DNA of 64,000 nt from a plasmid, in sequence record NZ_CP020440.2; one strand, written 5' to 3'. Of the stretch, positions 10,947 to 19,736 are shown piece after piece. Numbering within the stretch: position 1 is the first letter of the stretch; the number at the start of each line of letters is the position of its first letter. Position numbers and translations under genes: made by a program. The notes under the pieces are model-generated. The model saw only the letters and a program-made list of their open reading frames with translations, did not search any database and was not told where the DNA came from.

Positions 10947-10967
10947 GGGCCGTCAGTTGCTGACGGC
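10947..10967. terminator. Perfect 9-bp stem / 3-nt loop hairpin GGCCGTCAG-ttg-CTGACGGCC between convergent ACAD and opgG genes
   Basis: Seen directly. The stem contains the opgG stop codon. There is no U-tract, which is common in GC-rich genomes. Bidirectional. Confidence 0.35.
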
Positions 10968-12605
10968 CGCGGGCGTGGCCTGGGCATCGGCCCCGGGTCG
11001 GGCGCGGTCGAACTGGGCCGGATGGACCTGGCCCAGCCAGGTTTCCGTCAGCGGCTGGCCGTCCTTGGCCAGATAGGCGCGGATGTCGGCCGTCTCGACC
11101 CCCGGCGCGTCGATGTCGAAGATCAGCCGCCAGCGCGAGGTGCCCACCACCGGCAGGGCATAGCTTTGCACGATGGTGACGCCTTCGGGGACCGTCACGA
11201 CGGGTTCGACCCCCTGGTTCTGGCCCAGCGTGCCGATCTGGCCGCCGTCGAAGTCGATCACGATCTTCAGCTCGTCCTTGGGCCGGGGCAGGCCGGGAAC
11301 GCCGCCCGCGCCGATGCGGGTGGACACGGTGCGGGCCAGCGGCTGCGGCACCGGCGCCTGGTCGACCCAGCTGAGCGTATAGTCGAAGTCCATTTCCTGG
11401 CCCGGCTGCGGCTGGCGTTCGGGGTTCCAGAAGGCGACGATGTTGTCATAGACCTCGTCCTCGGTCGGGATCTCGACCAGCTGGACGTTGCCCTTGCCCC
11501 AGCCTTCCCTGGGCGCGATCCAGACCGAGGCGCGCCTGTCATAGAACACGCCGTCGTCCTCGTAGTTCTCGAAGCGGCGGTCGCGCTGGATCAGGCCGAA
11601 CCCTTTCGGATTCTCGGTCTGGAAGCTCGAGGTGACGACGCGGGGCGGGTTCATCAGCGGGCGCCAGATCTGTTCGCCGTTGCCCATGACCATCATCAGC
11701 CCGTCGGCGTCATGCACCTCGGGGCGCCAGTCAAAGGCCAGCACGCGGTTGGTTTCCGAATACCAGTACATCGAGGTCAAGGGCGCGATCCCCAGCCGCT
11801 GGACCGCGTTGCGGAAGAACAGCTTCGAGGACACCTGCATGGTCTGGCCCTGGCCGGGCGTGCCCTTGCGGATGTCCATGCGATAGGCGCCCGCGACCGA
11901 GGGGCTGTCCATCAGCGCATAGATCGTCACGTCGGTCTGCCCGTCCTTGGGCTTTTCGATGTAGAACTCGGTGAACAGGGGAAATTCCTCAGGCTCGGTC
12001 ATGCCCGAGTTGATGGCCAGGCCGCGCGCCGACATGCCGTATTGGCCGAAGGGGCCCGAGGTGCGGAAATAGGACGCGCCCAGAAAGCTGATCCAGTCGG
12101 TCCTGAGGTCGGGGTCCATCAGGCGGAACCCGGCAAATCCGGTCCCTCGGGTCAGCTGCCGCGCCGGGCTGTCGGCAGGCATGTCGAAAAAGCGCGGGTC
12201 ATAGGTGATGGCGCGGGCCGCGCCGTCCTCGACCACGGCGATCCTGACCGGGTTGCGGAAATAGGTTCCCAGGTGGAAGAACTGCACCGGCACGTCGCCG
12301 ACCCGGACCGTCGCCTCGGGGCGGAAGCGGATCTTCCAATGGGCGTCGTAGTCGATCTTTTCCAGGACCTCGGGCTGTTCGACCACGGGGGCGCGATAGG
12401 GCTGGGCGGCCAGGTCGCGGGCGCGCTGGGTCAGCACGTCCATGCTGAAGGGCTGCGCCTGCCCCAGCGCCGGCTGGAACGCGGCCGCTTGTTCCTGCGC
12501 CGCGGCAAGAGGGGGCAGGGCGGTCTGGCCAAGCGCCAAGGCAAGGACGGCGGCGCAAAGGGCGGCGGGACGGCGAAGGCGCAAGTCGGGGACTCCGTTG
12601 AACAT
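10953..12605 (-). CDS. opgG: Periplasmic glucan biosynthesis protein G (MdoG/OpgG family)
   Basis: 550 aa with an N-terminal signal peptide and MdoG-family conservation along its length (…DYDAHWKIRFRPE…FRNAVQRLGIAPLTSMYWYSE…). Confidence 0.85.
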   Translation of the reverse strand: MFNGVPDLRLRRPAALCAAVLALALGQTALPPLAAAQEQAAAFQPALGQAQPFSMDVLTQRARDLAAQPYRAPVVEQPEVLEKIDYDAHWKIRFRPEATVRVGDVPVQFFHLGTYFRNPVRIAVVEDGAARAITYDPRFFDMPADSPARQLTRGTGFAGFRLMDPDLRTDWISFLGASYFRTSGPFGQYGMSARGLAINSGMTEPEEFPLFTEFYIEKPKDGQTDVTIYALMDSPSVAGAYRMDIRKGTPGQGQTMQVSSKLFFRNAVQRLGIAPLTSMYWYSETNRVLAFDWRPEVHDADGLMMVMGNGEQIWRPLMNPPRVVTSSFQTENPKGFGLIQRDRRFENYEDDGVFYDRRASVWIAPREGWGKGNVQLVEIPTEDEVYDNIVAFWNPERQPQPGQEMDFDYTLSWVDQAPVPQPLARTVSTRIGAGGVPGLPRPKDELKIVIDFDGGQIGTLGQNQGVEPVVTVPEGVTIVQSYALPVVGTSRWRLIFDIDAPGVETADIRAYLAKDGQPLTETWLGQVHPAQFDRARPGADAQATPAAVSN

Positions 12606-12717
12606 TTCGGCGGCGAGGGGGGTGATGCCCGCCTTATCGCTAGGGCGAATGCGGCGGCGCTGGCAAGCAATTTGGCTGCACGATCAAGCGAATGTTGCGG
12701 ACTGTCGCCGGCGGGCG

Positions 12718-14085
12718 TCAGCCTTGCCGGCGGTCTTTCGCCGGTTCCCCGGCACCTGCACAGGGCAGATGCAATTCCGCGACGAGCCCGCCCGCCGGGG
12801 CGTTCGCCAGCGCCAGAGTGCCGCCATGGGCGCGGGCGATGTCGCGCGCGATGGAAAGGCCCAGTCCTGCGCCGCCGGTGCCTGCGTTGCGGCTTTCCTC
12901 GCCCCGCACGAACGGCTCGGTGACACGGGACAACAGCGCCTGGGGGATGCCGGGGCCGTCGTCCTCGACCCGGATCACGGCCTCGCCCGCCTTACCCATG
13001 GCAAGGGTCACGCGGGCATTGCCGGCATAGCGCAACGCATTGCCGACCAGGTTGCAGACCGCGCGGCTGATCGCCACCGGGCGCAGCCGGACGGGCACGG
13101 GCCCCGGCCCGCGATAGGGCACGCCCTGCTCGGCGCAAAGCCGGGACAGCAGCCGGTCCAGGTCGGTCACCTGGCGCGGTTCGGTCGTGGCGCCGGTGGT
13201 GGCGGCCTGCAGCAGCCCCTCGGCCATCACCGCCATGTCGTCCAGGATGCGGATCATGTCGTCGCGCTGGTCGTCGTCCTCCAGCAGCTCGGCCCGCAGG
13301 CGGAGGCTGGTGATCGGGGTGCGCAGGTCGTGGCCAAGCGCGGCCAGCATCCGCATCCGCTCGGCCTCGAGCCCGGCGATGCGGCGCTGCATGTCGTTGA
13401 AGGCCACGGCGGCCTCGCGCAGTTCGCTGGCCCCCGTCTCGGCCGCGCGGGCGGCGCGGTCGCCCCGGCCGGCGGCGCGCGCTGCCTGGGCCAGCGATTG
13501 CAGCGGGTGCGTCATCCGACGGATGAACCACAGCCCGACCAGCAGCGTGCCCACCAGGGATGCGCCCAGCGGCACGAACAGGCCCGACTTGACCGCCCAG
13601 GCGCGGGTGGTGGGCAGCGGATAGGCCAGCGTGTTCAGCCAGTCGCCCCGATAATGCCCGGCCTTCAGCCGGACCGAGACCGTCATCAGGGGGGCGCCGC
13701 GCGCGGCCCCGATCGGAGCGCCCCCTTCGCGGATCTGGATGTCGTGGGCGGGCAGGTGGGCGGCCAGCACCGCCTCCTCGGCCGGCAGGCGGTGCGAGTC
13801 GCCGGGATCGACCGGGGCGGCATCGACCGAGAACCGGGTAAATCCCGTGCTGCTGCGCCGGGGCAGCAGCCGCGCCGTCGCCGCATCGGCCGATTCCAGC
13901 GCCGAGACCAGCGCCATCAGCCGCTGCGTGTCGCCCTGCAAGCGGATCGCACGGTCAAAGGACGATCCTTCGCGCGCCAGAAGGATCGCGGCGATCAGGT
14001 TCATGCCCAGCACCGCCGCGACCAGCAGCAGCGAAAACCGCGCCGCCAGCCGGTCGGGCAGCAGCCGGCGCAGCGGGGCGATCAC
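12718..14085 (-). CDS. Sensor histidine kinase (HAMP-HisKA-HATPase)
   Basis: AALGHDLRTPITSL (H box), N/G boxes (VGNALRYAG, DDGPGIP, GGAGLGLSIAR). GTG at 14085 (VIAPLRRLL) overlaps the response regulator stop. Confidence 0.8.
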   Translation of the reverse strand: MIAPLRRLLPDRLAARFSLLLVAAVLGMNLIAAILLAREGSSFDRAIRLQGDTQRLMALVSALESADAATARLLPRRSSTGFTRFSVDAAPVDPGDSHRLPAEEAVLAAHLPAHDIQIREGGAPIGAARGAPLMTVSVRLKAGHYRGDWLNTLAYPLPTTRAWAVKSGLFVPLGASLVGTLLVGLWFIRRMTHPLQSLAQAARAAGRGDRAARAAETGASELREAAVAFNDMQRRIAGLEAERMRMLAALGHDLRTPITSLRLRAELLEDDDQRDDMIRILDDMAVMAEGLLQAATTGATTEPRQVTDLDRLLSRLCAEQGVPYRGPGPVPVRLRPVAISRAVCNLVGNALRYAGNARVTLAMGKAGEAVIRVEDDGPGIPQALLSRVTEPFVRGEESRNAGTGGAGLGLSIARDIARAHGGTLALANAPAGGLVAELHLPCAGAGEPAKDRRQG

Positions 14086-14801
14086 GGCAGGACCTCGACC
14101 TCGGCGGCCAGCCGATAGCCGCCGCCCCATTCGGTGACGATCAGGCGCGGGTTGCGCGGATCGGCCTCGATCTTGTGGCGCAGGCGGCTGATGGTGTTGT
14201 CGACGGCCCGGTCGTAGGCCCGCGCCTCGCGGCCCGCGTGCAGGTCCAGCAGCCGCATCCGGGTCAGCACCTGGCCCGGATGGTCCAGAAGCAGCCCGAG
14301 CATGCGGCTTTCCCCCGAAGTCAGCGCGATCTCGGCCCCCGAGGGGCGGATGATGCGCCGGCTGGCGGGGTCGTGGACAAGCCCGCCGAAACGGCGGCGC
14401 AGCGCGCTGGGGCCGGGCTGGAGCGGGGGCGCGCGGCGCAGCACGGCGCGGATGCGCGCCAGCAGTTCGCGCGGGTTGAAGGGCTTGGTCACGTAATCGT
14501 CGGCGCCGGTTTCCAGTCCGGTCACCTGATCCTCGGACGTGGCCAGGGCGGTCAGCAGGATCACCGGAACCCGGCCTTCGCGCGCAAGCGAGGCGCACAG
14601 GCTCAGCCCGTCCTCGCCCGGCATCATCACGTCGATGACGGCCAGGTGCACCGGGTCCTCGGCCAGGGCCTGACGGGCCTCGGCGGCATCGGCGGCCAGG
14701 CGGGTGCGATAGCCGCTGCGGCGCAGGAACTGGCCCAGCGGCTCGCGGATGTCGCGGGCGTCGTCGACGATCAGGATGCGCGGCTCGGCTGCGTCGGTCA
14801 T
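14082..14801 (-). CDS. OmpR-family response regulator
   Basis: Receiver domain (ILIVDDARDIRE…DVMMPGEDG) plus winged-helix (…LIVTEWGGGYRL). Confidence 0.85.
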   Translation of the reverse strand: MTDAAEPRILIVDDARDIREPLGQFLRRSGYRTRLAADAAEARQALAEDPVHLAVIDVMMPGEDGLSLCASLAREGRVPVILLTALATSEDQVTGLETGADDYVTKPFNPRELLARIRAVLRRAPPLQPGPSALRRRFGGLVHDPASRRIIRPSGAEIALTSGESRMLGLLLDHPGQVLTRMRLLDLHAGREARAYDRAVDNTISRLRHKIEADPRNPRLIVTEWGGGYRLAAEVEVLP

Positions 14802-14882
14802 GGGGCCCTCGGCTTGGGAATGCGAACGACGGCGGCATCCCGGATGCCGCCGCCCATGGTGGGGGAAAGGCCAGTCGGCCGA

Positions 14883-17183
14883 TCAGAACGAGGCGGTCAG
14901 CCCCATGTAGAAGGCGCGGCCCGGTTCGTTGAACGTGTTCGCGCCGTCGCTGGTATTGGTGCGCAGGATCTGCTTGTCGAACAGGTTCGTCACCCCCGCC
15001 GACAGCCGCGCGGTTTCGTTGACCTGCCAGTTTGCGCCCACGTTGACCAACGTATAGCCGCCGCGCGCCTCGGGGTCCTCGATCTCGTTGCCCATGCTGT
15101 TGCCGATCGTTGCCGGGTCGATCTTGCCGTAGTGCGTCGCACCCAGGGTCAGGGTCAGATCCGGCGTCGCATACCAGTCGAGCGAGGCGTTGATGGTATA
15201 GTCCGGCACCAGGCTCAGCGGTTGGCCGTTTTCGTCCTCGGACTTGATCATCTTGGTGAAGTTGGTGTTGAAGGCATAGCGGTCGCCCAGCGGCGTCGAG
15301 AAGTTGCCCTCGATCCCCGAGATCACCGCGTTCTTCTGGTTCTCCCAGCGGAACAGGCGGTTTTCCGTGGCGCCGGGGTTGTGCTGGATCCGACCCGAGC
15401 CGATGCGGTTGTCATAGTCGTTGTGGAACCAGGTCAGGCTGGCGTTCAGATCGTTGGCGCCCTGATAGGCGATCCCGATTTCCTTGTTCAGGCTGCGTTC
15501 GGCCTCGAGATCGGGGTTTCCCAGGACATAGCACGGACCGCTGATCTGCACGCCGTCCACATAGGGGCAGCCGCGCCCGCGCGTGGTGTAGACGTAGTTC
15601 GGGTTCAGCTGATACAGGTTCGGTGCCTTGAACGCGCGCGCCACGCCCAGCTTCATGGTCCAGGCCTCGTTGAACGCATAGGTCGCGTTCAGGCTGGGCG
15701 ACCAGGCGGCGCCGAAATTGTCGTTGTAGTCGAAGCGCAGACCGGGGGTCAGGGTCAGCCTGTCGTTCCACAGGATATTCGCCTCGGCATAAAGGCCGAT
15801 GGTCTGTTGGTCGGTCTTGGGATCGCGGTTCTCTCCGTCGGGATCGACGCCGATGTCTTCGCCCAGGTCCGGATCCAGCGACCCGCGGATCGACACGCCG
15901 TCCTCCATGAACTCGCCGCGGTATTCGGCGCCGAAGGTCACGCGGCTGTCCCGGCCGGCCAGCTGCATCGGCAGGATCCATTCGCTTTTGGCGGTGATGT
16001 TGTCCAGCGTGATCGTGCTGAACGCCATCGCGTCGTCTTCGCCGTCGCCATCGGTATCGACGCAGTTGGTGATCGCGCCCTCGCCACTGCCGGCCGTGCC
16101 TTCGCACAGCCGCGCGTTGCGGGTGTTTTCCCATTGCAGATAGCTGAAGGACTCGCCGAAGTCATATTCGCCCCGGTGGGTCACCGACAGGGTGCGGCGA
16201 TACATCCGGTTGGTCTCGGTGCCGATCAGGTTGACGCCGTCCTGTTCCTCTTTCACCGAGCCGAACATGGTGTCGCCGGCATAGATGTTGCCCTGGCGCG
16301 AGAAGCCCGCTTCGAAGTCGATGACATGGCCGGGGGCGACCTGCCAGCTCAGCAACCCGTTCAGATCCTTGTTCACCACGCCTTCGCGGCCAGCGAGGTT
16401 GCTGTATTCGGGGTTGCCCTCGTCATCGAGGACCGGGTTGCCGTCGTCGTCCAGCAGGGGCACGCGGTTGATGTCGGGGGAATCGGCATCGGTCTTGTTG
16501 TAATTGCCGAACAGCCGGAAGGTAAGATTTTCACCGATGGGCCCGGCCAGCATGAAGTTGCTGCGCACCGAGTCGCCTTCCTGCCGGCTTTCGGGCGAGT
16601 TGTAGTGCATCCCGACCTGCCCCGAGAAGGTTTCGGGGCGCTTGGTGATGATATTGACCACCCCGCCCGACGAGCCCGAACCATAGCGCGCCGCCGCCGG
16701 GCCGCGCAGAACTTCAATGCGCTCGATCATCTCGGCCGGCACCCAGTTCGAATCGCCGCGCGAATCGCGTTCGCCGTTGCGGCTCATGCGGACCGAGTTG
16801 CGCGACATGACGGGCTTGCCGTCGATCAGGATCAGGGTGTTTTCCGGCCCCATGCCGCGGATGTCGATCTGGCGCTGGTTGCCGCGCTGGCCGCTGGCGG
16901 TGGCGCCGGTCAGGTTGACGCCGGGCATCTTGCGCACGATTTCCGAGATGTCGTTGACGACCGGCTGTTTTTCGATGTCCTCTGCGGTGATGGTCGAGAT
17001 GCCCAGGGCCTGCTTGCCCTGTTCCTCGGCGGAAAGGACGACGGTTTCAAGGACGACGGTGTCGTCGGTATCGGTGGTTTCGATCGTGTCCTGGGCCAGG
17101 GCAAAACCTGCGAAGGCCGGGATCGAGATCAACAGGCAAAGGGCGGTGCCCATTGCTGGGCGCGGGATAAGCGTAGCCATCGC
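14883..17183 (-). CDS. TonB-dependent siderophore (catecholate-type) receptor
   Basis: Signal peptide, plug domain (DTIVL…PGVNLTG…IEVLRGPAAARYGSGSSGGVVNIITK) and a C-terminal beta-barrel ending in F. ATG MATLIPRP at 17183. Confidence 0.85.
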   Translation of the reverse strand, partial: AMATLIPRPAMGTALCLLISIPAFAGFALAQDTIETTDTDDTVVLETVVLSAEEQGKQALGISTITAEDIEKQPVVNDISEIVRKMPGVNLTGATASGQRGNQRQIDIRGMGPENTLILIDGKPVMSRNSVRMSRNGERDSRGDSNWVPAEMIERIEVLRGPAAARYGSGSSGGVVNIITKRPETFSGQVGMHYNSPESRQEGDSVRSNFMLAGPIGENLTFRLFGNYNKTDADSPDINRVPLLDDDGNPVLDDEGNPEYSNLAGREGVVNKDLNGLLSWQVAPGHVIDFEAGFSRQGNIYAGDTMFGSVKEEQDGVNLIGTETNRMYRRTLSVTHRGEYDFGESFSYLQWENTRNARLCEGTAGSGEGAITNCVDTDGDGEDDAMAFSTITLDNITAKSEWILPMQLAGRDSRVTFGAEYRGEFMEDGVSIRGSLDPDLGEDIGVDPDGENRDPKTDQQTIGLYAEANILWNDRLTLTPGLRFDYNDNFGAAWSPSLNATYAFNEAWTMKLGVARAFKAPNLYQLNPNYVYTTRGRGCPYVDGVQISGPCYVLGNPDLEAERSLNKEIGIAYQGANDLNASLTWFHNDYDNRIGSGRIQHNPGATENRLFRWENQKNAVISGIEGNFSTPLGDRYAFNTNFTKMIKSEDENGQPLSLVPDYTINASLDWYATPDLTLTLGATHYGKIDPATIGNSMGNEIEDPEARGGYTLVNVGANWQVNETARLSAGVTNLFDKQILRTNTSDGANTFNEPGRAFYMGLTASF

Positions 17184-17287
17184 ATGCTCCGGGATCGGGG
17201 GACTGAGGGAGGGATGGCTGGCTTGCGCGGGCTTGGGGCCTTCAATCACTTACAGGCACAAGCATCAAGAAAACTTACAGAATATTT

Positions 17288-17305
17288 TGTCGCAATCTGT
17301 CGCAA
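17288..17305. promoter_or_regulatory. Direct repeat TGTCGCAA-tc-TGTCGCAA (TGTCGC-N4-TGTCGC) about 105 nt upstream of the TonB receptor start
   Basis: Seen directly in an AT-richer promoter region. The same TGTCGC-N4-TGTCGC spacing recurs at 18962-18977. Confidence 0.3.
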
Positions 17306-17330
17306 AGCTGCGGCTGCGCCGCACGGAAAC

Positions 17331-17357
17331 GCCCGGCGGAAGGCTGTTCCGCCGGGC
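17331..17357 (-). terminator. Hairpin GCCCGGCGGAA-ggctg-TTCCGCCGGGC downstream of the beta-propeller gene
   Basis: Perfect 11-bp inverted repeat 27 nt after the YVTN gene stop; followed on the minus strand by GUUUCC. Confidence 0.4.
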
Positions 17358-17383
17358 GCTCGTCGGTCAACCGGCCAGGCCGA

Positions 17384-18784
17384 TCAGGACTTGGGCGTGA
17401 TCTTCCAGATGCGGTCGCCCGCCTCGTCGCCCTGCGCGCCCTTGTTCACGGCCCAGATGTTGCCCTTGCCGTCGGCGCGCAGCTGGTTCGGCATGCCGCC
17501 GATGTCCAGGTTCGCGACGATTTCGCCCTGCGGGCTGACGACGGTGACGGTGCCCGCGCCGCGGTTCGCGACATAGGCCAAGCGCCCCACCGGGTCGAAG
17601 GCCACGTTCAGCGCACCCGCGCCCACCGCCACGTCATGCAGGACCTCGCCCGTGTCGGCCTTAAGGATCAGCAGGTTGTCGGTTGCTTGCGAGGCGACGA
17701 AGATCAGCCCTTCCTGCGGGTCATAGGCCACGCCCGAGGCGGCCTTGGCGCCCGGCAGCGCGTGCACCTCGACCTCGCCGGTCTTGAGATCGACGATGGC
17801 CGCTTCGGGCGTGGACAGGCTGACGGTGACGAGCTTGCCGCCCGGCTCGTCGATGTCCAGCGCCATGGTCGAGAACTCTTCGCCCCGGATCTTGGACGGG
17901 ATGACGATGGGGTCCAGCGGCTCCAGCGTCTTGGTGTCGAAGACCTTGATCTCGTTCGTGCCGGTCGCGCTGGCATAGGCGCGGCCATTGGATTCGTCCA
18001 CCACCACGTCGCGGGCGTGCGGCACCGCGCCCGGTTCGAACTGCTTGACCAGCGACAGATCGGATTGCTTGTAGACGGCTGCCGTGTCCTGGCGGGTGTT
18101 GGTGACCCAGACATTGCCGTTGGCCTCGTCCACGTCCACGCCATAGACGGCCAGCAGGCCGCCGTCGCTGCCGTCGGCACGGGCGGGGGCGGCGGCGGGC
18201 GTCACCTCGGCCAGGACCTTCAGGCTGTCGGCGTCGATCTTGACAAGCTTGGATTCCTTGACCGGCGGCCGGCCGACGGCGCTGGTCACGAAGGCGGCAT
18301 TCGCACCCTGGCTGTATTTCACCTGGTACAGCCCGCGCGTCACCGGCTGGTTTTCCACGGTGAACTTGTCCGCCCCCGACACAGGCACCTCGGGCGAGAC
18401 CTTCAGCTGCACGACCTCGGCGCTGGCCGGATTCTCGGTCACGACCAGGATCGGTTGCAGGCCGATTTCCGCATCGGCGTCCAGCGCCAGGTCAAAGCTG
18501 AAGTTGCCTTCGGCATCGACGGTGATCGGCTGCGGGTTCAGGGGGGTCGTTCCGCGCAGCAGGGTCACGGTCTGGCCGGGCACCAGCCCCTCGCCGGAAA
18601 TGACCGCCTTGCCGCCCTTGAGGATCGGCGCGCGGTCTACCCCCTGGGCCGAAACGCGACCCACGAAATCGGGGACGGGTTTGGTGAAAAGCGTATCGGC
18701 CAGGCTGGCCGTGGCGCCGCCGGCCAGCGCGATCGCCGAGGCGCACAGCATCAGCCGCATACGGGACATCCGGATCATCGACAT
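17384..18784 (-). CDS. YVTN-family (YncE-like) periplasmic beta-propeller repeat protein
   Basis: Signal peptide (MSMIRMSRMRLMLCASAIALAGGATASLA) and repeated …YV(T/A)N…-type blades (AYVANRGAGTVTVV, VWVTNTRQDTAAVY, IFVASQATDNLLIL). Confidence 0.75.
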   Translation of the reverse strand: MSMIRMSRMRLMLCASAIALAGGATASLADTLFTKPVPDFVGRVSAQGVDRAPILKGGKAVISGEGLVPGQTVTLLRGTTPLNPQPITVDAEGNFSFDLALDADAEIGLQPILVVTENPASAEVVQLKVSPEVPVSGADKFTVENQPVTRGLYQVKYSQGANAAFVTSAVGRPPVKESKLVKIDADSLKVLAEVTPAAAPARADGSDGGLLAVYGVDVDEANGNVWVTNTRQDTAAVYKQSDLSLVKQFEPGAVPHARDVVVDESNGRAYASATGTNEIKVFDTKTLEPLDPIVIPSKIRGEEFSTMALDIDEPGGKLVTVSLSTPEAAIVDLKTGEVEVHALPGAKAASGVAYDPQEGLIFVASQATDNLLILKADTGEVLHDVAVGAGALNVAFDPVGRLAYVANRGAGTVTVVSPQGEIVANLDIGGMPNQLRADGKGNIWAVNKGAQGDEAGDRIWKITPKS

Positions 18785-18961
18785 GAAACGTTCCTTATCA
18801 TGTAGTTCGCGCCGCAGGCCGAGGCCACCATCGGGTCGCGCAAGGCTGCCCCGGGGCCGGTCGTCCTGACGGTCGAAAGTTGGCAGGCTGGCGTGGGGCT
18901 GGCACGGCGCGATTAAGACCAGCACCCCGATCCGAGTGCAAGCGAAAACCCGCGGCGAGTT

Positions 18962-18977
18962 TGTCGCGAAATGTCGC
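18962..18977. promoter_or_regulatory. Second TGTCGC-gaaa-TGTCGC direct repeat, about 180 nt upstream of the beta-propeller gene and just 3' of the gntR stop
   Basis: Seen directly; same half-site and spacing as 17288-17305. Confidence 0.3.
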
Positions 18978-18989
18978 TGGCCCGGATGG

Positions 18990-19736
18990 TCAGGACTTGT
19001 CGGGCGCGGCCAGGAAGGCCTCGCGCGCGCGGTCGGCCCCCTCAAGGATGACGGCGCGCATGGCCGCGGCGGCGGCCTCGGGGTCGCGCGCGGCGATGGC
19101 GCTGGCGATGGAGAGGTGCTGGGCCGCGCAGCGGGCGATGCCCTCGGGGCTGAGCGCGGGGGACGACATCTGGAACGACACGGCCAGCGCCGCCTCGATC
19201 AGCGTGGTGACCGAGCGCATGAAGGGGTTGCGCGACATGGCGGCGACCGCCAGGTGAAAGTTCAGGTCCTCTTGCGCGACGGATTCGCGGCTGTGGCCCG
19301 GGTTGTCGATGCGCGCGGCGATGCCGAACAGCGCTGCGATTTCCTCGGCCGTGGCGTTCAGCGCGGCCAGGCGGGCCGCGGCCGGCTCGAACGCCAGGCG
19401 CATTTCGCTGAGATGGTCGATGAATTCGGCGCTCATGCCCGATTGCATCGTCCATGTGATCACGTCTGAATCGACGAAGTTCCAGGCGGCGCGGGGATTG
19501 ACCCGCGTGCCGACGCGGGATTTCGCGCGGACCAGCCCCTTGGCGGCCAGCGTCTTCATCGCCTCGCGCAGGACACTGCGGGACACGCCGAAGCGGTCCA
19601 GCAGCTGCGGATCGCCGGGCAGGGTGGCGCCTTCGGGGAACTCGCCCGCGATGATGGCGCGGCCCAACTGGTCCACCACCCGGGCGTGGCTGGATCGCGG
19701 CGCGTCCCCGAACATGCGCTGGCGCAGGATTCCCAT
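18990..19736 (-). CDS. GntR-family (FadR/FCD subfamily) transcriptional regulator
   Basis: N-terminal wHTH (…LGRAIIAGEFPEGATLPGDPQLLDRFGVSRSVLREAMKTLAAKGLV) plus an FCD-like C-terminal domain. Confidence 0.8.
   Translation of the reverse strand: MGILRQRMFGDAPRSSHARVVDQLGRAIIAGEFPEGATLPGDPQLLDRFGVSRSVLREAMKTLAAKGLVRAKSRVGTRVNPRAAWNFVDSDVITWTMQSGMSAEFIDHLSEMRLAFEPAAARLAALNATAEEIAALFGIAARIDNPGHSRESVAQEDLNFHLAVAAMSRNPFMRSVTTLIEAALAVSFQMSSPALSPEGIARCAAQHLSIASAIAARDPEAAAAAMRAVILEGADRAREAFLAAPDKS

Follow-up and report, generated by a model that had tools for sequence, protein, structure and literature searches.

The present analysis concerns a short tandem repeat, TGTCGC-N4-TGTCGC, on a 64,000-nucleotide stretch of a Paracoccus yeei plasmid (sequence record NZ_CP020440.2; hereafter, the window), where it occurs upstream of a gene for a FepA-family TonB-dependent receptor and again upstream of a gene for a YncE-like beta-propeller protein. 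The genes of an OmpR-like response regulator and an EnvZ-like sensor kinase lie beside the receptor gene, and an earlier note on this DNA had suggested that the repeat could be an operator for this regulator. Every gene in the cluster around the two copies is on the minus strand (Table 1). The window DNA is 99% identical to three other P. yeei plasmids, and at the protein level the window matches the P. yeei plasmid pYEE46822P12 with 100% identity.

Genes and repeats of the cluster

The receptor is 49% identical to PirA of Pseudomonas aeruginosa. The propeller protein, for which the PGAP name is 'YncE family protein', carries an extra N-terminal region of about 130 amino acids (aa). In the PLSDB gene tables its gene (NZ_CP024424.1 34069-35469; NZ_CP031080.1) is called 'ATP-binding protein' in two P. 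yeei plasmid records, whereas a third record has 'YncE family protein', and the former name looks like a mis-annotation.

The best NCBIfam model for the regulator is OmpR, with 211.5 bits against a cut-off of 331, and that for the kinase is EnvZ, with 188.5 bits against a cut-off of 415 (NF007005 / NF007004 equivalogs). The PhoB model scores lower for the regulator than the OmpR model does, and OmpR-model scores lie at 211-236 against the same cut-off of 331. By sequence, the pair is thus OmpR-like, yet no OmpR equivalog by the NCBI criterion. Homologues of the regulator that are 64-81% identical to it are found across the Rhodobacterales and in Zhengella. Its identity to Escherichia coli OmpR is 43%, as measured against an OmpR sequence that was validated at 459 bits against the OmpR model.

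A pattern search of the 64 kb returns two perfect matches to the repeat, at 17288-17303 and 18962-18977, and a match with one mismatch at 12693. On the plus strand the letters are ttTGTCGCAAtcTGTCGCAAag (17288-17305) and ttTGTCGCgaaaTGTCGCtg (18962-18977), which in the orientation of the genes read cTTTGCGACAgaTTGCGACAAAat for box 1 and ccaGCGACAtttcGCGACAAAct for box 2. The repeat on the coding strand is therefore GCGACA-N4-GCGACAA, and an independent repeat search likewise reports TGTCGCAA twice with a spacing of 10. The flanking bases common to both boxes are ..GCGACAAA, and the starts of the hexamers are 10 bp apart in both boxes, in line with the identical half-site spacing noted earlier, as well as in all related sites. 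Both boxes are intergenic and have the same orientation, within about 400 nt of intergenic DNA before adjacent, functionally linked genes. The nearest hexamer ends 107 nt from the receptor ATG (17180) and 177 nt from the propeller ATG (18784), which bears out the distances of about 105 and 180 nt in the earlier note, including its choice of the propeller start. That note had also placed both copies in the only AT-richer non-coding stretches of the cluster. This description fits the region upstream of the receptor, which has a GC fraction of 0.575 and is the least GC-rich of the cluster, but not that upstream of the propeller gene, which at 0.67-0.69 is not notably AT-rich.

At several boxes the 10-bp register continues in a weak third unit, located 10 bp before the distal hexamer in L009, L011 and L015 (GGCACA, GCGCCG, GTGACT); its P. 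yeei counterpart is GCCGCA (window 17308-17313). Although poorly conserved, such a unit would fit the multi-unit arrays known for OmpR.

The two transcription units are separated by the hairpin that follows the propeller gene, a predicted terminator (Table 1).

Table 1. Positions of genes, boxes and predicted elements on the window and at comparison loci (L numbers)
Feature	Position	Strand	Details
MdoG/OpgG-type glucan protein gene	10953-12605	-	
EnvZ-like sensor histidine kinase gene	12718-14085	-	455 aa; HAMP, HisKA, HATPase_c; GTG start overlaps regulator stop
OmpR/PhoB-family response regulator gene	14082-14801	-	239 aa; Pfam Response_reg and Trans_reg_C; predicted binder of the boxes
FepA-family TonB-dependent catecholate siderophore receptor gene	14883-17180	-	765 aa; NF010048, 904.8 bits against a cut-off of 493; predicted first target
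Putative receptor core promoter	17240-17268	-	TTGATG (17263-17268), 17-nt spacer ending TGa (TG 17247-17248), TTGAAG (17240-17245)
Box 1, tandem direct repeat TTGCGACA-ga-TTGCGACA	17288-17305	-	Hexamers 17298-17303 and 17288-17293; predicted regulator site before the receptor gene
Terminator-like hairpin after the propeller gene	17330-17358	-	12-bp perfect inverted repeat; fold -34.8 kcal/mol, z = -5.0
YncE-like periplasmic beta-propeller protein gene	17384-18784	-	466 aa; NCBIfam YncE 3e-22, below cut-off; PDB YncE 3vgz 2.5e-7; predicted second target
Putative propeller core promoter	18912-18941	-	TTGCAC (18936-18941), 18-nt spacer, CTTAAT (18912-18917)
Box 2, GCGACA-tttc-GCGACA(AA)	18962-18977	-	Predicted site before the propeller gene, 13 nt past the GntR/FadR stop
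GntR/FadR-type regulator gene	18990-19736	-	
GCCAGC tandem or related leader element	Window 18887-18903, 17208-17235; L006 6906-6922; L009 3911-3927; L015 1957-1974; L023 5557-5573; L027 5568-5583		
Propeller gene at comparison loci	About 7001 in L002, L004, L005, L007; about 1144 in L003; 2052 in L015		
Gene divergent from 'core' regulator members	L016 5234-5773; L017 5239-5754; L019 4152-4745; L020 4224-4763		

Co-occurrence of the box with the regulator and kinase

The recurrence of the word carries little weight by itself. In 300 order-2 Markov simulations of 64 kb with the same composition, 29% contained some recurring 6-mer-N4-6-mer with at least two A/T, so that raw recurrence is not significant once all words are considered. 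It was rejected as evidence, and independent comparative evidence was therefore sought. With a position weight matrix (PWM) derived solely from the sites of other organisms, boxes 1 and 2 on the window score 36.8 and 25.6 bits, and the third-best site scores 10.9 bits. On the complete 225-kb sister plasmid pTT13-2 the corresponding values are 37.5, 25.1, and then 7.7 bits. The perfect coding-strand motif GCGACA-N4-GCGACA has 15 matches in 522 kb of non-redundant sequence, and all 15 are in predicted regulatory intergenic regions. We attribute the significance of the boxes to location and conservation: they lie before linked genes, share orientation and flanks, and are singled out by the foreign-site matrix, and for these reasons they are not random.

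The one-mismatch match GCGACAgtccGCAACA (12693-12708) is located between the kinase stop and the mdoG/opgG start and has the same orientation as the two boxes. It suggested an envelope regulon, but was rejected as probably due to chance; the matrix gives it a background score of 6.4 bits, and its distance to any -35-like element is different.

The receptor-regulator-kinase arrangement is a conserved three-gene module in Paracoccus, found with unrelated flanks in L009, L011/12, L013/14, L015 and L024 (the last from P. aminovorans). In every one of these loci GCGACATTT(C/T)GCGACAAAA is found 103-111 nt before the receptor ATG, and in the six-species alignment of the receptor promoters (A2) the box is the best-conserved non-coding block. 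Box 1 is accordingly kept at the same place in L009, L011, L013, L015, L024 and also in L006. Where the propeller gene precedes the module, it has a box of its own, the counterpart of box 2 (3840-3855 in L009 and 1884-1899 in L015). The box is also present in P. pantotrophus (L018) and P. methylovorus (L025), where a second receptor type is encoded opposite the regulator gene.

More distant relatives of the regulator (64-69% identical) occur in Limimaricola, Roseovarius, Jannaschia and the rhizobial Zhengella. Their genes are not beside receptors but opposite a gene for a small EF-hand protein, and in all four genera the shared intergenic region contains two opposed boxes, GCGACAnnnnGCGACAA facing the EF-hand gene and GATACA/GTTACAnnnnGCGACAA facing the regulator gene. 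These divergons are the strongest evidence for a link between the regulator and the box. The only element common to all box-bearing module and EF-hand loci is the regulator-kinase pair.

In these other Rhodobacterales and in Zhengella, the genes of such 'core' members of the regulator family are without exception transcribed away from a neighbor that encodes a protein of 170-200 aa. The partner proteins of L016, L017 and L019 show faint EF-hand matches, the 179-aa protein of L020 has no Pfam match on record, and in Zhengella a membrane protein with a Ferric_reduct domain follows. These sequences suggest that the core members form a conserved OmpR-like system, so far undescribed, whose periplasmic partner binds calcium.

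The box is present at 8/8 receptor loci with the two-component system and at 1/5 FepA-type receptor loci without it (one-sided Fisher p ~0.007, calculated by hand, with the Paracoccus loci not independent of each other). The loci that lack both the system and the box belong to Haematobacter, Thioclava, Falsirhodobacter and Ponticoccus; the single locus with a box but no system is L006 of Paracoccus. The repeat thus accompanies the regulator-kinase pair rather than the flanks, in the EF-hand loci of other genera as well, which supports the suggestion of the earlier note that the regulator encoded at 14082-14801 would be the binder.

The sequences of the two proteins are consistent with this assignment. 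The recognition-helix segment AYDRA(V/I)DN..SRLR.KIE is nearly invariant across the regulator family, with which the boxes co-occur and co-vary across genera, and the phospho-acceptor Asp57 of the regulator and His252 of the kinase are invariant. The cytoplasmic parts of the kinases align well, whereas the periplasmic domain is conserved among the receptor-linked members only and differs from that of the EF-hand-linked kinases, suggesting a changed input with a conserved output.

A candidate identity of the regulator as the rhizobial FeuP, which has cyclic-glucan and iron phenotypes, was dropped. A paper on FeuPQ gives no binding motif, the layout of the FeuP/FeuQ locus described there is different, and no link to the present family was found.

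The box also resembles the published repeat of E. coli OmpR, GTTACATTTTGTTACAT (PMC5438342). When the E. coli repeat GTTACATTTTGTTACA is set against the Paracoccus consensus GCGACATTTCGCGACAA, the two have in common a 10-bp period, a G..ACA frame and a T-rich 4-nt spacer, while the half-site is GCGACA here and GTTACA in E. coli. Together with the linkage to the regulator and the near-invariant recognition helix, the 10-bp period and this likeness support the idea of a tandem-repeat operator of an OmpR-family response regulator, as a predicted site. The exclusion of Fur, Irr ICE and RirA boxes in the earlier note also holds. Those elements and the Iron-Rhodo box are palindromes (GATAATGATAATCATTATC; TTTAGAA-N3-TTCTAAA; TGA-N9-TCA) (PMC1698941, PMC9426570), and the present element, a direct repeat, does not have this form.

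Orthologues of the propeller protein that are 65-82% identical to it are found in P. kondratievae, P. versutus, P. thiocyanatus, P. denitrificans and Paracoccus sp. DMF-8. The P. kondratievae gene (L002, the one locus among those of this type that the cluster annotation covers) is inside a catecholate siderophore cluster with an EntF-like nonribosomal peptide synthetase (NRPS), an enterochelin-esterase-like gene and a FhuD/FecCDE-type ATP-binding cassette transporter, and the L015 gene sits between an NRPS gene and the receptor module. Gene neighborhood and predicted co-regulation would thus link the propeller family to catecholate-iron uptake. In the betaproteobacterium Kerstersia gyiorum (L008 4870-6729 and 7001-8350), a propeller protein of 50% identity is encoded directly after a TonB receptor gene whose product is 31% identical to the P. 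yeei receptor. The pairing therefore extends beyond the Alphaproteobacteria, and no GCGACA box was seen at this Kerstersia locus.

The box that precedes the propeller gene in L002 (P. kondratievae), L003 (P. versutus) and L005 (P. denitrificans) was left out of the evidence. An esterase-like gene, divergent from the propeller gene, has its ATG-TCG start within reach of the distal hexamer, and because of this overlap the conservation of that hexamer is coding. At L002 6855-6870 and, in P. versutus, at L003 986-1001, a perfect GCGACA-N4-GCGACA covers the esterase-like start codon (ATGTCGC...). The proximal hexamer is intact in 2/5 species with propeller loci of this type; P. denitrificans has a mutated copy, and P. 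thiocyanatus and DMF-8 have none. A distance of about 42 nt separates the box from the TTGACA element. Some species may have a genuine additional target here, or the match may be a coincidence of the coding sequence.

Promoter geometry and a predicted receptor circuit

Putative core promoters can be placed downstream of both boxes from conservation and geometry (Table 1). The proximal hexamer of box 1 ends 19 nt upstream of TTGATG, and a TG is found two nt before TTGAAG. In the alignment of the receptor promoters, TTGA and AA.TG.TTGAA are invariant. The proximal hexamer of box 2 ends 20 nt upstream of TTGCAC, and the propeller promoters of L009, L015 and L006 have the same arrangement, with TTGnnn 19-20 nt past the box and a T.TA.T-like hexamer 18 nt further on; the -10-like elements of the propeller promoters are CTTAAT or TGTAAT-like. 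The gap of 19-20 nt between the box and a conserved TTGnnn, with a -10-like element 17-18 nt further, is thus found in every Paracoccus receptor and propeller promoter examined, and the coding strand always carries the box as GCGACA-N4-GCGACAA.

On either side of the -35-like hexamer in the receptor promoter, at 17248-17255 and 17273-17280, stand the two copies of a perfect 8-nt direct repeat, ACTTACAG (coding strand: CTGTAAGT), with a spacing of 25 nt. It is confined to P. yeei and is not conserved in the other species.

We consider it probable that both repeats serve the neighboring OmpR-like regulator as operators and belong to a siderophore-sensing receptor circuit. Each operator would be a pair of 10-bp units (GCGACA and a 4-nt spacer), which would place a dimer of the phosphorylated regulator on one face of the helix in the head-to-tail manner of OmpR/PhoB-family proteins. 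Since the box ends 19-20 nt upstream of the TTGnnn -35-like hexamer, its center would lie near -63 relative to the predicted transcription start, the position of a class I-type activator recruiting RNA polymerase, and we infer activation rather than repression. Two transcription units on the replicon would be controlled in this way, namely the receptor gene, from which transcription probably continues into the regulator and kinase genes and would thereby provide positive feedback, and the propeller gene. Once the receptor has imported small amounts of a ferric catecholate, a siderophore from other producers, the periplasmic domain of the kinase would sense it, and both genes would be turned on. 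The catecholate as the inducing signal is proposed by analogy with PfeS/PfeR and PirS/PirR only, and the presumed link to iron limitation comes from the receptor family.

In these Pseudomonas systems, imported ferric enterobactin or catechols are sensed in the periplasm, and pfeA and pirA are induced (PMC10654771, PMC9426570). They share with the P. yeei locus an OmpR-family regulator and a periplasm-sensing kinase encoded beside a FepA/PirA-family receptor gene, the action on the receptor promoter being a prediction in P. yeei, and we propose for it, by analogy, the same logic of importing a little, sensing in the periplasm and making more receptor. The differences are considerable. The regulator is 33% identical to PirR over 235 residues, which is about the level between any two OmpR-family members, and the gene order is receptor-regulator-kinase here and regulator-kinase-receptor in Pseudomonas. 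The pirS-pirA intergenic region contains CTTTAC-type repeats and a Fur box, without a GCGACA repeat, and the PfeR sites have been described as pairs of palindromic sequences (PMC10654771). P. yeei has, moreover, a predicted second target in the propeller gene, and no Fur box is evident in its promoters. Because of the low identity to PirR, the sequences indicate that the resemblance is functional and not by descent, the regulator having been recruited independently.

Another system of this kind is PeuR-PeuS/PeuA of Vibrio parahaemolyticus, in which two-component genes adjoin an enterobactin receptor gene and the receptor promoter contains a CpxR-box-like tandem GCAAA-N4-GTAAA (PMC4141801). The adjoining genes and the tandem direct repeat are as in P. 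yeei, but the Peu proteins are CpxRA-like, PeuA is FhuE-like rather than FepA-like, and an alternative transcription start site (TSS) relieves a translational block under co-control by Fur and alkaline pH (PMC4141801). With OmpR-EnvZ of E. coli the locus has in common, in addition to the best-scoring family models, a box upstream of the -35, which is a putative one in P. yeei; the targets are porins there and a siderophore receptor and a propeller protein here, and the sensor domain of the kinase is different.

In the Pho box, TGTCA-like hexamers are directly repeated, and PhoB binds them as a winged-helix dimer in head-to-tail arrangement. The Pho box differs from the present element in that it has an 11-bp period and replaces the -35, whereas the P. 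yeei boxes have a 10-bp period, are located about 20 nt upstream of a -35-like element and give the TGTC reading on the strand opposite to the gene.

Several points weigh against the proposed circuit. A slightly degenerate box precedes a receptor gene without an adjacent regulator in L006, a Paracoccus metagenome-assembled genome, where the regulator may be encoded elsewhere. The receptor-module loci are all from Paracoccus and phylogenetically non-independent, so that independence comes mainly from the four EF-hand loci. The regulator is, as stated, no orthologue of PfeR/PirR, and the boxes could also be recognized by a 'core' paralogue, the recognition helix of which is almost the same. No ligand-binding family was recognizable in the periplasmic domain of the kinase by domain search. 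A scan for sigma-70 consensus promoters found none, and together with the poor -10 candidate TTGAAG of the receptor this makes the -63 position uncertain. The stretch from the receptor gene to the regulator gene is devoid of boxes and contains only a GC-rich hairpin without a U-tract, and autoregulation would therefore depend on read-through of this hairpin. More generally, the operator role in this regulator family is a prediction from sequence.

The alternative that survives best accepts that the regulator binds the boxes but has the circuit repress, or answer an envelope, osmotic or calcium-type signal inherited from an OmpR/EnvZ-like ancestor paired with an EF-hand protein. The closest family models are indeed OmpR and EnvZ, EF-hand proteins and not iron genes accompany the more widespread relatives, and the kinases of both subfamilies have a conserved cytoplasmic part. 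We nevertheless regard this alternative as unlikely. The receptor-linked kinases have a periplasmic sensor of their own type, conserved within this group, and a new input is thereby suggested. In at least eight loci the system is fixed beside FepA/PirA-type receptors, in L015 also beside a catecholate NRPS gene, and the location of the box, 19-20 nt before a -35-like element, agrees with activation.

The repeat could instead be the operator of another transcription factor, such as the GntR/FadR-type regulator encoded at 18990-19736 or a global iron regulator. Box 2 is close to the end of the GntR gene, a GntR gene is a neighbor of the module in L009 as well, and iron-uptake genes normally carry sites for iron regulators. 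However, GntR/FadR operators and alphaproteobacterial iron boxes are palindromes rather than 10-bp direct repeats, and L011-L020, L024 and L025 have the box without a GntR gene. FepA-type receptor genes without the system, as well as the P. denitrificans-type siderophore-cluster promoters, carry TGA-N9-TCA-type elements and not the tandem geometry, and the box is also found at the non-iron EF-hand loci, which makes such a factor highly improbable. Chance recurrence of a short word in GC-rich sequence, which the simulations and the background-level match upstream of mdoG would allow, is effectively refuted by the placement of both copies in the two relevant intergenic regions in one orientation, by the retention of the box at the same position in about 10 other loci while the surrounding non-coding DNA diverges, and by the absence of further matches in the 225-kb plasmid.

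An evolutionary extension of the predicted operator circuit is more tentative, and we hold it to be possible rather than likely. Paracoccus would have duplicated a widespread alphaproteobacterial OmpR/EnvZ-like system, the ancestral partner of which was the periplasmic EF-hand protein, kept the GCGACA-N4-GCGACAA specificity and replaced the periplasmic sensor. The result would be a mobile receptor-regulator-kinase cassette that senses foreign catecholates, convergent with Pfe/Pir, with the propeller protein as a dedicated periplasmic component in the acquisition of catecholate iron. Because the output motif is unchanged, cross-regulation between the targets of the envelope/calcium-type and siderophore systems would be possible.

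The present analysis provides a concrete predicted operator and a candidate two-operon regulon for an uncharacterized, widespread alphaproteobacterial OmpR-like two-component family. A literature search found no prior description of GCGACA direct repeats with response regulators, nor of such a circuit in Paracoccus or Rhodobacterales. Control of a catecholate receptor by a neighboring two-component system has so far been studied in Pseudomonas and Vibrio, and the prediction is that it originated independently in Rhodobacterales. Predicted co-regulation and neighborhood in several species would also tie the uncharacterized family of YncE-like propellers to catecholate-siderophore uptake. P. yeei is an opportunistic human pathogen. 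Since the PirRS circuit of P. aeruginosa sets the level of receptors that import siderophore-antibiotic conjugates such as cefiderocol (PMC9426570), the P. yeei circuit could, by analogy, affect susceptibility to such conjugates.

Other elements in the promoters and leaders

In most orthologous receptor promoters a TGA-N9-TCA element directly follows the box and overlaps the -35-like TTGA (e.g., TTGATGCACCGGCTCACAAATGG; L009 5549-5575). This is the RirA/Iron-Rhodo-box consensus of Rodionov et al. (PMC1698941). The element is present in L009, L013, L015, L024, L006 and L018 and degenerate in P. yeei (TGA-N9-CTG, window 17240-17268), L011 and L025. A clear TGAC-N7-GTCA is found in the propeller promoters of the P. 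denitrificans type (L002-L005), and a conserved upstream block of the TTGACA/TGA-N9-TCA type is shared by the propeller orthologues of L002, L003, L004, L005 and L007. The element may be an iron-repression input, possibly weakened in P. yeei.

The search for Rfam RNA families in 14700-19100 gave no match. The leaders of the propeller genes contain a tandem GCCAGCC-N3-5-GCCAGC(C/T) about 40-110 nt before the ATG, and a related CCAGCCCGC...GCCAGCCA precedes receptor genes, including those of Thioclava and Ponticoccus, which are without the two-component system. This leader element is invariant in alignments A2 and A3 and has no Rfam match, but the word GCCAGC is frequent in DNA of such GC content. 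The element may belong to the 5'-UTR (untranslated region) or be the site of another protein.

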